From a virus (lineage: Duplodnaviria; Heunggongvirae; Uroviricota; Caudoviricetes): 45,946 nucleotides of DNA. Position numbers: made by a program. The stretch's first letter is position 1, and each line of letters begins with the position of its first letter. This document shows positions 9,001 to 12,000 of this stretch, in pieces. Where the stretch lies: the IMG/VR virus record IMGVR_UViG_2585427775_000005; one strand, 5' to 3'.

Positions 9001-12000
9001 TATATTCACCGCACGGTCGAGTTGACCGTCGGGATTGAGACCCCGGATAGAAACCGCGACAGACACACGCCGCGAGCGTGTTTTTTATTGTCGTATGCAC
9101 GCGCACATCTGAATTATGGTGGGGCGTATAGGGGAGCTGAAAAGCTCGCCGGTTGGTTTCCCGGTAGTCTCAACCCTGTACGTCTCACCACCCGACGATT
9201 GAGACCTGACGGTGGTGATAGTTTAGAAACCACCCTAGGGTGTCGTTATGACTACTCAAATCTCTGTTGAAACTCTTGTTGCTATTACTTACAACCAAAT
9301 CCCTGTAATTACCACTGAGTTGTTGGCGCATCTTTATGGTGCAGACGTTAAGAATATTCAAAACAACTTTGCAAGGAATGTAGGGCGCTTTCAGATTGGA
9401 AAACACTTTTTTAAGATCGAAGGTGAAGAGTTACGTGAATTGAAGCACAGACCATCTTTAAGTGGGTCTGTGAAAATCGCCCGTAACGTTCGTTCCCTCA
9501 TCCTCTGGACAGAACGCGGAGCAGCCCGTCATGCAAAAATGCTCGAAACCGATCAGGCGTGGGAAGTATTCGAAAAACTCGAAGACAGTTACTTCAACCA
9601 GTACGAGAAAGAGCGGACTATGGGAAAAATGAATATCGATTTTCACCTGGCGATCCGTGACGATAAAACCGCCTTCATCCGAAGTTATGCGCCTGGCGAG
9701 CTGGTGACGGTTGAAGAAGCCCTGGCTTTGCTTAAATCGCGCGGATGGCTGGTAATGCCACGAGATGAACTGGCCGGAAAATTAATGGAGCTTTAACCGA
9801 TTGAGTTAACCTTGATATGGGAATTCCCATATCGGGAGAACATTACCATCGGGGATAAAATGATTTGCGGGGAAAGAAGAGTTAAGTAGAATTGCTGCGG
9901 GTGCTTGAGGCTGTCTGCCTCGGGCATGCCGCCGTAAGGCAGACAGAGAAAAGCCCCAGTTAACATTACGCGTCTTGCAGGACGCTTAACATTAATCTGA
10001 GGCCAATTTCATGCTTTGCACATGTAGGTTAGCCTCTTACGTGCCGAAAGGCAAGGAGAAGCAGGCTATGAAGCAGCAAAAGGCGATGTTAATCGCCCTG
10101 ATTGTCATCTGTTTAACCGTCATAGTGACGGCACTGGTAACGAGGAAAGACCTCTGCGAGGTACGAATCCGAACCGGCCAGACGGAGGTCGCTGTCTTCA
10201 CAGCTTACGAACCTGAGGAGTAAGAGACTTGGCGAGGGGGAAATCCCTCGCCACCTCTGATGTGTCAGGCATCCTCAACGCACCCGCACTTAACCTGCTT
10301 CGGCGGGTTTTGTTGTATTAGAATATCAGGATATTACCTGGATCCCGTTTTTCTCGACAACTGAAAGAAGCCGAAGAGCTGCACCTCCCGGGCGTTTCAC
10401 TCCTCGTTCCCAGTCTGATATCAGGTTTTTACTGACGTTGAGGTATCTGGCAAAAACAGGTTGAGACAGATGCTCTCGTTCTCGCAGTGCACGGATCCTT
10501 TCTGGAGACATTACCGGCGCAGGCTGAAGACAAGTTTCATCGAATTCGCGCATAGTTTGTTTTGTGATTGCACCGATATCATGGAGTGACTCCATCATTT
10601 CATGTACAGATGCAAGTGCATCACTGCGGTAATTTTTACTCATTGGGTACCTCCGTGAACTGGCCTTGTTGAATCAATTGTGCCAGCTGTTCATCAGTAA
10701 GATTGAGGACATGGGGAGCGGCTTTTCGAAAAGCATTTTCCTCTATAGCAGTGATATTCTCTCGTTCATTCTTTGCGTATGCGTAGATGAAAAAGGCTTT
10801 TTCTGCAACGCGGTAAAAAATTATTGTCCGGTAACCGCCTGATTTTCCGCCACCACTTCGGGCTAATCTTTGTTTAATGACACCACTACCCAAATTTGCG
10901 GATATGATCCCCCTTATCGGCCTGCTCCACGATTTTGCGCAGCGATTTATCGGAAATCCGATGTTTTCGGGCGAAACGTTCAAACCAGGCGTTTTTGAAA
11001 ATTCGCATACCTGCCTCTGCATTTTATATAACACATAGTGTTACACTATGTGGACTATGGAGGCAATCTTTATTTGAGAATGCTTGCTGATTTATCCGTG
11101 TTCAAAAAACAGACGTAATTCAGATTGTATAAACGGCAGACAGAAAAAGTCATTGTTCTTGCGCATAAAATCCTCAGATTTACTGAGTGAAATGCGTCTC
11201 TTTTCATGGTTATAGTCCGAGAGAAGCGATAATGCATTTCATTTCCTTTACGTCAGGAGGTGTTGTGAAAATCCCAGCCAGTTTGATCCCGGGGTTTTAT
11301 GAGAGCACGCGCCCGGTTGTTGTTTACAGAAACAGTGATGGTTCTTTTCAATGTGGTTTTGTTATGCGAAGTAATGAGGTTGTTGTAAGCCTTTCTCTTC
11401 TTTCTGAGGTAAGAGAGTTGGCAGGACTACCTGTTGATGATATTCAGAAGCAGCTATAAAATCAGGCTGACTTGAACCGTCGCTGAGAAACACCGTGCCA
11501 CCGGAGATCCCGATGGCGCACGATAGCAGATTGCACAATTCTGCCGCCCTTGCCAGTAGGCAAGGGCGGTGTTCGCACGTATTTAAAACCGACTGGTTCC
11601 AGCATCCCCCATGCACTGAAGAACAGGCCGAATGGCTGATCCAGTGTTACCGCAGGTGCGGATATGAGTTTGAGAAAGCCCTCAGCTTCGATCGTCGTCA
11701 CTGGATAATCTCCGTCAGGCTCCCTTATTCCGAACGCCCACCGCGTCCGTCCCGCACATTCCAGCAGCGCATCTGGAGGTAACGTGCGGGTATTACTTCG
11801 ACCTGTTCTGGTACCGGAACTCGGTCTGGTTATCGTTAAGCCAGGCCGTGAATCAATGTCAGTATTCCATAACGGCAGAATATTGGTGGAGCCGGAACCG
11901 AAAAACATGCGCGGTCTGCCGTCCGGAGTCGTTCCTGCCGTTCGCCAGCCGCTGGCAGAGGATAAAACATTACTGCCATTTTTCAGCGATGAGCGGGTTA

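Follow-up and report, generated by a model that had tools for sequence, protein, structure and literature searches.

An apparently complete hok/mok/sok locus and a HigB-2/HigA-2-type operon with a frameshifted toxin gene in a lambdoid prophage of Escherichia coli

Described relatives and the composition of the locus

The best solved relative of the two type II proteins considered here is the HigB-2/HigA-2 toxin–antitoxin system of Vibrio cholerae (VcHigBA2; PDB 5JA8, 5JA9, 5JAA, 5J9I and 8A0X), in which a PF06296 toxin is encoded ahead of an antitoxin that combines an unstructured N-terminal part with an XRE-type helix–turn–helix (HTH) domain at the C terminus. HigB2 is the structural prototype of PF06296, a family in which the toxin gene precedes the antitoxin gene and mRNA is cleaved in a ribosome-dependent manner (PMC11980606); the four catalytic residues of VcHigB2 (R51, R64, Y82 and K84) have been defined experimentally (PMC5416850), and the operator of VcHigA2 has been mapped to a single 19-bp inverted repeat, TGTACGC-N5-GCGTACA, that follows the −35 element and covers the −10 element (PMC11006873). 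In HigBA2 of Acinetobacter baumannii, the antitoxin is by itself able to repress the promoter, with the toxin serving as corepressor (PMC5906591). Here, we describe a module that shares the toxin family, the toxin-first operon, the four catalytic residues and probably the antitoxin layout of VcHigBA2, and that lies in IMG/VR record IMGVR_UViG_2585427775_000005, a 45.9-kb stretch (described also as 46 kb; the whole stretch is referred to as the window) comprising a complete lambdoid prophage of Escherichia coli. With good confidence, we read this part of the prophage as accessory cargo made up of an apparently complete hok/mok/sok locus and a HigB-2/HigA-2-type operon in which the toxin has been knocked out while the antitoxin and operator are intact. 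The relationship to VcHigBA2 is distant (123 aa for the frame-repaired toxin and 110 aa for VcHigB2), and whereas VcHigBA2 resides in a superintegron, the window module is prophage-borne and its toxin gene is frameshifted.

The A. baumannii system resembles the window module as a reverse-order HigB2/HigA2-type module and serves here as the model for autoregulation by a toxin-less allele; it differs in being plasmid-borne with an intact toxin. The founding 'HigBA', that of the Proteus vulgaris plasmid Rts1, also has a RelE-superfamily toxin encoded ahead of an HTH antitoxin, but its toxin belongs to a different Pfam family, in the PF05015/PF09907 group (PMC11980606), its antitoxin dimer has a different architecture and it uses two operators; moreover, Rts1 HigBA was not among the PDB sequence matches of either the window toxin or the window antitoxin. 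The label 'HigB/HigA-like', proposed in an earlier interpretation made without database searches (the sequence-only reading), is appropriate at the superfamily level, and the Pfam and PDB sequence matches, which settle the question of fold, give the precise family as HigB-2/HigA-2 rather than Rts1 HigBA.

The evidence for the disrupted toxin comes from the anatomy of the gene (Table 1). The stretch spanning the frameshift site, AAGGGGGAT, contains a run of five G residues on the coding strand, and alignment with the copy in O26:H11 str. 11368 reveals only one difference that matters, GGGGG in the window and GGGG in the intact allele. The +1 insertion shifts the toxin frame after codon 33, and removal of one G restores a 123-aa protein (RefSeq WP_001217944.1) that starts at ATG 11008, matches PF06296 over the entire profile (1–120/120, E 1.4e-47) and aligns with 80 distant homologues over residues 1–123. 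As encoded, no uninterrupted gene in the window yields a full-length PF06296 match, the N-terminus being in a separate frame, and PGAP correspondingly splits the window's allele into two coding sequences (CDS) of 40 and 85 aa in E. coli strain GE3 and many other genomes. The first 33 residues of the 40-aa fragment are native and correspond to helices α1–α2 of HigB-2. The frameshift falls between these two N-terminal helices and the β-sheet core, which leaves every catalytic residue on the C-terminal, out-of-frame side; beyond the 40-aa stub, the window would yield at best a C-terminal piece lacking the helices. The toxin gene in the window is therefore a pseudogene of a PF06296 family member, and the module consists of a toxin pseudogene and an intact antitoxin gene, with no working pair. 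The sequence-only reading, which had described a toxin-first operon of a RelE-superfamily toxin and an HTH antitoxin, stands with regard to family, gene order and antitoxin gene, and errs in taking the toxin open reading frame (ORF) as intact.

The best PDB matches of the frame-repaired toxin are V. cholerae HigB-2 chains (phmmer E 4e-4), and only the β-sheet core aligns. Within it, R47, R60, Y77 and K79 align with VcHigB2 R51, R64, Y82 and K84, respectively; with all four catalytic residues conserved, the intact allele looks catalytically competent, and it would encode a ribosome-dependent mRNA endonuclease. The antitoxin matches Pfam HTH_3 (1e-7) and phrog_2104 (5e-43), and its top PDB matches are V. 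cholerae HigA-2 chains (6.7e-8, residues 45–99); residues 1–44 contain no Pfam domain. Its ATG overlaps the toxin stop codon (10636–10643) and it has its own GGAGG, so it should be translatable without the toxin, and an antitoxin gene lies immediately downstream of the toxin gene at 78 of 80 distant homologue loci. Other resources were less informative: no NCBIfam model matches the toxin and the antitoxin gave only sub-threshold HTH matches (MqsA, NadS and DicA), PADLOC has no defense-system model for the toxin, PHROGs places both proteins in families of unknown function, and a literature search aimed at E. coli prophage hokD/HigB modules yielded nothing on this module, only a survey of Hok and a paper on paaR2-paaA2-parE2, a different system.

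Table 1. Features of the two toxin–antitoxin loci and their surroundings, in window coordinates
Feature	Position	Strand	Remarks
ORF6N (antirepressor-like) gene	9248–9796	+	
Putative weak hok promoter	9865–9892	+	TTGCGG, 16-nt spacer, TAGAAT; scores 8/12, below the sigma-70 scan threshold
tac-like 5' element	9897–9910	+	GCGGGTGCTTGAGG; predicted to pair with the 3' fbi element
hok leader, Rfam RF01794 'sok' match	9899–10073	+	full model, 1–157
Putative Sok antisense RNA	about 10019 to about 9950	−	approximate, predicted ends
Putative sok promoter	10054–10049 and 10031–10026	−	TTGCCT, 17-nt spacer, TAACCT; hexamer match
mok-like ORF	10011–10223	+	70 aa, in frame with and overlapping hokD
hokD	10068–10223	+	51 aa plus stop; type I toxin
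fbi-like 3' fold-back element	10273–10287	+	CCTCAACGCACCCGC; predicted to pair with 9897–9910
hok intrinsic terminator	10292–10319	+	hairpin 10292–10309 and T-rich tail; terminator scan, predicted fold
HigA-2-like antitoxin (HTH-XRE repressor) gene	10326–10643	−	intact, 105 aa
HigB-2-like (PF06296) toxin pseudogene	10636–11008	−	123 aa if frame restored
C-terminal toxin fragment	10636–10893	−	85 aa from TTG 10893 (PGAP), WP_024173694.1; all four predicted catalytic residues
N-terminal toxin fragment ORF	10886–11008	−	40 aa, WP_001365959.1; MRIFKNAWFERFARKHRISDKSLRKIVEQADKG-DHIRKFG
Frameshift site	10909–10913	−	G5 coding-strand run (C-run on the plus strand); G4 in intact alleles
Shine–Dalgarno GAGG	11014–11017	−	5 nt ahead of the true toxin ATG 11008
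Family-conserved 19-bp operator (candidate)	11027–11045	−	TGTAACAC-TAT-GTGTTATA; position weight matrix, comparative
Perfect 21-bp palindrome (10+1+10)	11032–11052		CACATAGTGT-T-ACACTATGTG; 14 bp shared with the operator

A conserved candidate operator upstream of the toxin gene

A comparative search for the operator covered the 100–150 nt upstream of the toxin gene at the 80 distant homologue loci (Chromatiaceae, Halomonas, sphingomonads and others). It returned a 19-bp inverted repeat with the consensus TATAAyAC-N3-GTrTkATA, in which positions T3/A17, A5/T15, A7/T13 and C8/G12 are conserved or nearly so. Scored with the resulting position weight matrix (PWM), 77 of the 80 loci exceed 8 bits upstream of the toxin gene, compared with a 99th percentile of 6.35 bits for shuffled upstream sequences, and the best site in the window (TGTAACACTATGTGTTATA) reaches 27.2 bits and is the only one above 10 bits in the 45.9 kb. 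The 19-mer is identical in the window, O26, O178, O104:H4 and FORC_069 alleles despite their divergent flanks, and the allele from a chicken isolate has a close variant of it. Furthermore, all antitoxins whose loci have half-sites of the form TAxxAC/GTxxTA share the unvarying segment SQPVFARYLNVSKNL[VI]SDWERG, and divergent recognition helices (loci L046, L058, L080, L083 and L084) pair with correspondingly divergent half-sites; at the level of sequence, the motif thus co-varies with the recognition helix of the antitoxin. The comparison with VcHigA2 points the same way. The mapped operator and the window's candidate are each a single 19-bp inverted repeat, at the −10 region in VcHigA2 and at a putative one in the window, with an 8-N3-8 layout in the window (TATAACAC-N3-GTGTTATA) and a 7-N5-7 layout in VcHigA2, and the base-contacting residues of VcHigA2 (R68, E71, N72 and R77) correspond to N73, S76, D77 and V82 in the window antitoxin; all four differ, which fits the different half-site sequence.

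The sequence-only reading had placed autoregulation at the 21-bp palindrome, described as overlapping the toxin promoter and start. The palindrome is indeed perfect, it is unique in the window at up to three mismatches and absent from 100 shuffles, and the window contains six perfect inverted repeats of this class (arms of 10 nt or more, spacer no longer than 5 nt) where 0.25 are expected from dinucleotide shuffles. Its relation to the gene is different from that proposed, however: with the true start at ATG 11008, the palindrome lies 24–44 nt upstream of the start codon rather than over it and overlaps only a spurious GTG. Its center is 6 bp further upstream than that of the 19-bp repeat, and its outer arm (11046–11052) is allele-specific. 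That this stretch contains an autoregulatory operator, as had been suggested, is very likely, and its conserved site is the 19-bp repeat. Separately, four further perfect inverted repeats with arms of 10–13 nt occur at 5115–5145, 5594–5613, 11544–11569 and 39618–39641, those near 5100–5600 being within the dicA/dicC-like immunity region.

The most serious competitor to the 19-bp repeat is that the palindrome itself is the functional operator here; two antitoxin dimers could, for instance, bind to overlapping CAC-N3-GTG cores spaced 12 bp apart, or another regulator could bind there. A perfect palindrome with 10-nt arms is rare at the expected frequency given above and probably not the product of chance alone, the family motif does not account for its outer arm, and some distant homologues (e.g., L012, L015, L016 and L021) have GTGT just upstream of the left half-site. 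Against this, the outer arm is matched at only 9 of 10 positions in O178 and in the majority intact allele (O26) and is absent in the O104:H4 and chicken-isolate alleles, all of which keep the 19-mer or its close variant; moreover, VcHigA2 uses a single site (PMC11006873). A second operator in the outer arm (11039–11057) was considered and rejected as a family feature, as it scores 0.1 bits against the family PWM. With an outer arm that is both poorly conserved and low-scoring, we take 11027–11045 as the operator and regard the palindrome as unlikely to be the functional one.

The sigma-70 scan detected no canonical promoter over the palindrome or the 19-bp repeat, the nearest consensus match (11153–11124) being 80–120 bp upstream, which weighs against our placement of the operator across a promoter. 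Consequently, only a putative extended −10 element (TGtTATATA, 11025–11033), overlapped by the right half of the 19-bp repeat, is proposed; transcription from it would begin some 10 nt upstream of ATG 11008, immediately before the GAGG. In this arrangement the antitoxin most likely binds the 19-bp repeat as a dimer, across the putative −10 element, and would repress the operon alone. The type II locus in the window most likely yields antitoxin only, under its own repression.

Toxin alleles and the fate of the broken gene

The frequency of the lesion was determined from 5,426 complete E. coli genomes, about 169 of which carry this allele group. The intact G4 allele (exact 79-mer) is present in 113 of them, the window's G5 80-mer in 37 and a second G5 haplotype with one extra single-nucleotide polymorphism in 14 more, giving a frameshifted gene in at least 51 of the roughly 169 genomes; the 40-aa stub peptide is found, as an exact match, on at least 1000 contigs. 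The INPHARED phage collection returned a single match (phage PhiR12_3, 79.6%) and is of no use for allele statistics. The arrangement of hokD beside a broken HigBA2 module is common, and it is already annotated in RefSeq. Other E. coli alleles, about 83–85% identical in DNA, differ in the state of the toxin gene: O104:H4 2011C-3493 has two 1-bp deletions, FORC_069 has one of the same two deletions, NMBU-W12E19 has an IS66 insertion plus a deletion, and the chicken isolate Z1323CEC0006 retains an intact 123-aa toxin. The antitoxin ORF, in contrast, is intact at 105 aa in all seven E. coli alleles examined, and the window and O104 antitoxins are separated by 24 synonymous and one non-synonymous change (ratio of non-synonymous to synonymous rates, dN/dS, 0.01). 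At most of the distant loci (L006–L085), the antitoxin is also closer than the toxin to the E. coli protein (about 52–77% and 42–64% identity, respectively); this greater conservation of the antitoxin across distant bacteria reverses what is often assumed for toxin–antitoxin pairs.

The type II locus in the window is probably not toxic. What weighs against a complete loss of function is that the C-terminal fragment retains all of the catalytic residues and that its TTG is preceded by a Shine–Dalgarno-like AAGGGGGA; residual activity of this fragment is conceivable. The broken allele might still be a source of toxin in either of two ways, by a +1 ribosomal or transcriptional slip on AAG-GGG-G or by reassembly of the 40-aa and 85-aa pieces. 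A slip of AAG GGG|G AUC would regenerate the exact wild-type D-K-G-I-I-S, and tRNA-Gly can re-pair perfectly one base downstream, but the site lacks a stimulatory element (the A-site codon is neither rare nor a stop, and an upstream Shine–Dalgarno sequence at the right spacing is missing) and a run of five G is too short for efficient slippage. Reassembly is made plausible by the overlap of the stub stop codon (10886–10888) with the start of the C-terminal piece, by the Lys/Gly-rich loop that this piece contains together with its catalytic residues, and by the few contacts that helices α1 and α2 of VcHigB2 make with the ribosome (PMC5416850). However, these helices pack on one face of the β-sheet, so the fragment is likely to be unstable, and the unrelated lesions in related alleles (two 1-bp deletions, an IS66 insertion) point to plain decay. 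We consider continued toxin production from this allele, by either means, quite improbable.

An intact, functional 132-aa toxin read from GTG 11034 inside the palindrome, forming a working HigBA pair, is less credible still. An uninterrupted ORF of this length does exist (GTG 11034 to 10636), and PGAP annotates it in one genome, O178:H19 2012C-4431 (WP_236940275.1). In profile searches, which bore out the antitoxin as an HTH_3 protein and the toxin as a PF06296 member over its full length once repaired, the 132-aa product matched PF06296 only through its residues 40–129 (profile positions 31–120), the first ~39 residues being an out-of-frame read-through of the true N-terminus. The latter (MRIFKNAWFERF...) is read in a different frame, which opens at ATG 11008 behind its GAGG, and is part of the 1–123 alignment conserved in the 80 distant homologues; the intact allele differs by exactly one G, and GTG 11034 has no Shine–Dalgarno sequence and lies inside the operator. 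Finally, although homopolymer indels are a common type of error, the notion that the extra G is a sequencing or assembly artifact in an intact gene was rejected from the allele counts and deserves next to no credence, given the identical G5 80-mer in 37 complete genomes and the second haplotype in 14, from many laboratories and platforms, the stub peptide on at least 1000 contigs, and a window that is 99.9% identical to, yet distinct from, GE3.

With the toxin gene taken as dead, the persistence of the antitoxin invites a further, tentative reading, to which we assign a low probability: the toxin-less allele may be maintained rather than decaying, with antitoxin and operator under selection as an 'anti-addiction' or cross-immunity factor. 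It fits because at least four toxin-killing lesions are present in E. coli (G5, one or two 1-bp deletions, IS66), and because the antitoxin ORF is always intact with a dN/dS of ~0.01 and the 19-bp operator is unchanged. If true, the antitoxin would neutralize or repress the intact HigB-2 modules of related lambdoid prophages, including Stx-type, that enter the cell or reside alongside.

The hok/mok/sok locus and its prophage setting

The sequence-only reading had hokD on the plus strand, converging with the minus-strand operon, and both points are confirmed: a 51-aa Hok protein is encoded within the 70-aa mok-like ORF, and 102 bp separate the hokD stop (10223) from the antitoxin stop (10326). 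The Hok protein is identical to K-12 HokD and matches PF01848 (2.7e-23 for the 70-aa ORF, profile positions 1–42/42) and phrog_251 (2.8e-33), and PGAP annotates the gene as hokD. The locus shares with hok/mok/sok of plasmid R1 and with hokC/mokC the PF01848 Hok protein, the RF01794 leader and an overlapping mok ORF, as well as 5'–3' fold-back pairing and an antisense promoter within the leader, both of which are predictions in the window; it is located in a prophage, unlike the R1 plasmid copy. The mok-like N-terminus (MLCTCRLASYVPKGKEKQA-MKQQK) resembles what we take to be the in-frame MokC/HokC arrangement of K-12, mok being in frame with hok presumably as in chromosomal hokC and unlike in R1.

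The Rfam RF01794 'sok' match (117.3 bits, E 2.2e-27; gathering score 59) might be thought to identify the antisense RNA; it lies on the hok-sense strand, which counts against that view of it and, by the same token, makes it a record of the leader and target region rather than of Sok itself. By this match, the region is best described as the 5' leader of the hok mRNA, including the target region of Sok; the putative hok promoter lies just upstream of the first position of the model (9899). In the predicted fold of 9897–10318 (minimum free energy, MFE, −185.4 kcal/mol, z = −8.66), the tac-like and fbi-like elements pair in both the MFE and centroid structures. The terminator ends about 7 bp before the antitoxin stop codon. 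The position of TTGCCT-17-TAACCT would suit a sok promoter, with a layout that we assume to parallel that of R1 sok; a stricter sigma-70 scan did not pick it up. All elements of a hok/mok/sok locus are thus apparently present. By analogy, a stable hok mRNA would be held closed by the 5'–3' (tac–fbi) pairing, Hok translation would be coupled to the in-frame mok ORF, and a short-lived antisense Sok RNA from the promoter inside the leader would block Mok translation, so as to act as a post-segregational or abortive killer; the leader and fold on which this scheme depends are predictions. The hok terminator hairpin is unidirectional, and the terminator scan of the window found no terminator-like site on the minus strand downstream of the antitoxin, so read-through antisense to the 3' end of hokD is possible. 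We speculate that transcripts of the derepressed type II operon could extend antisense into the 3' fold-back element of hokD, thereby coupling the two loci.

UACG is the target context of TadA. The Tyr47 codon of hokD (10205–10211, TTACGAA) stands in this context, and the window copy retains an editable codon; a preprint survey of Hok proteins describes Tyr-to-Cys A-to-I recoding at the corresponding codon (its Cys46) in the transcripts of hokC, hokD and hokE, as by TadA on hokB (10.1101/2025.08.07.668861). A second Hok/Gef-family gene (43358–43498, plus strand, 46 aa, MSQKPLKTTVICITVVLIIWITHSSLCEFRFRIAGAEIAAFLQCKQ) lies among the late genes, with the tail-tip J gene on one side and the tail-fiber gene on the other, and is flanked by short inverted repeats at 43382–43401 and 43507–43529.

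The Qin prophage of K-12 has a comparable arrangement, relBE-hokD (relBEF). It shares with the window the HokD protein, the position of hokD upstream of a DUF968 (ydfU) gene, dicA/dicC/dicB-type immunity and a RelE-superfamily type II module adjoining hokD. The sequence-only reading, which placed relBE-hokD at the equivalent site, had suggested that the type II module had been swapped for a HigB-like one in opposite orientation. The gene orders contradict this. With hokD as plus, K-12 reads relB-relE-hokD-rem-ydfU, and the window reads ORF6N, sok/mok leader, hokD, HigBA2-like module (opposite strand), two small ORFs and DUF968; the upstream side of hokD, occupied by relBE in K-12, has the sok/mok leader and the ORF6N gene in the window, while the downstream side, where the HigBA2-like module lies in the window, has rem in K-12. 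K-12 relBE is antitoxin-first and co-oriented with hokD, the window module is toxin-first and convergent, the two antitoxin folds are unrelated, and RelE belongs to PF05016 where the window toxin belongs to PF06296 (PMC11980606). Being on opposite sides of hokD, in opposite gene order and from different Pfam families, the two modules are independent cargo of one hot spot. K-12 Qin shares only window 10054–10311 around hokD (97% identity), without the sok/mok/tac leader, and K-12 hokD is therefore a truncated copy in which relBE stands where the lost leader would be.

The prophage of E. coli strain GE3 is collinear with the window (57 ungapped mismatches, 99.9% identity) and not identical to it; it is inserted between potC and potB of the potABCD operon, and window ends 1 and 45946 match exactly. 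A ykgJ-like gene lies at its right junction. The order of the GE3 prophage is integrase, excisionase, exonuclease, dicB, a dicA-like repressor gene, dicC, replication genes and a DUF1627 gene; then the ORF6N gene, hokD and the type II module, two small ORFs, DUF968, RusA and a Q-like gene; and finally tRNAs, lysis genes, and head and tail genes. From this order, the hokD/type II stretch, two unrelated toxin–antitoxin loci tail to tail, is accessory cargo in a variable slot flanked by the replication genes and the nin/DUF968 genes. In the prophages of O104:H4 2011C-3493 (L004, 2902–4630), L087 and L089, the same slot stacks hokD, a phd/doc-type pair and a HigBA2-like remnant. The slot thus accumulates toxin–antitoxin modules.

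Upstream of the two loci, Rfam matches to isrK (9013–9086, 52 bits) and C4 antisense RNA (9112–9195, 70.5 bits) directly precede the ORF6N gene on the plus strand, and c4 a1/b1 targets at 9000–9049 (plus strand) score below the Rfam threshold; this isrK/C4/ORF6N layout (9000–9796) resembles, within a lambdoid prophage, a c4-ant antisense switch of the P1/P7 immI type. At 9814–9833, past the ORF6N stop (9796) and ahead of the putative hok promoter, lies a perfect 20-bp palindrome, GATATGGGAATTCCCATATC.

The direct value of these results is that of a correction and is modest, as the module is of a known kind, has decayed here and is already annotated in RefSeq; a scan that accepted the 132-aa ORF as it stands would count a pseudogene as a functional toxin and place the operator 6 bp off. 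TATAAyAC-N3-GTrTkATA offers a testable operator consensus for a large PF06296/HigA-2 subfamily that spans several phyla, and the K-12 relBE-hokD arrangement can be understood as derived by truncation from a complete prophage hok/sok locus. That the toxin has been lost repeatedly and independently, with the antitoxin strictly conserved, makes the E. coli prophages a clean natural data set on the persistence of orphan antitoxins.

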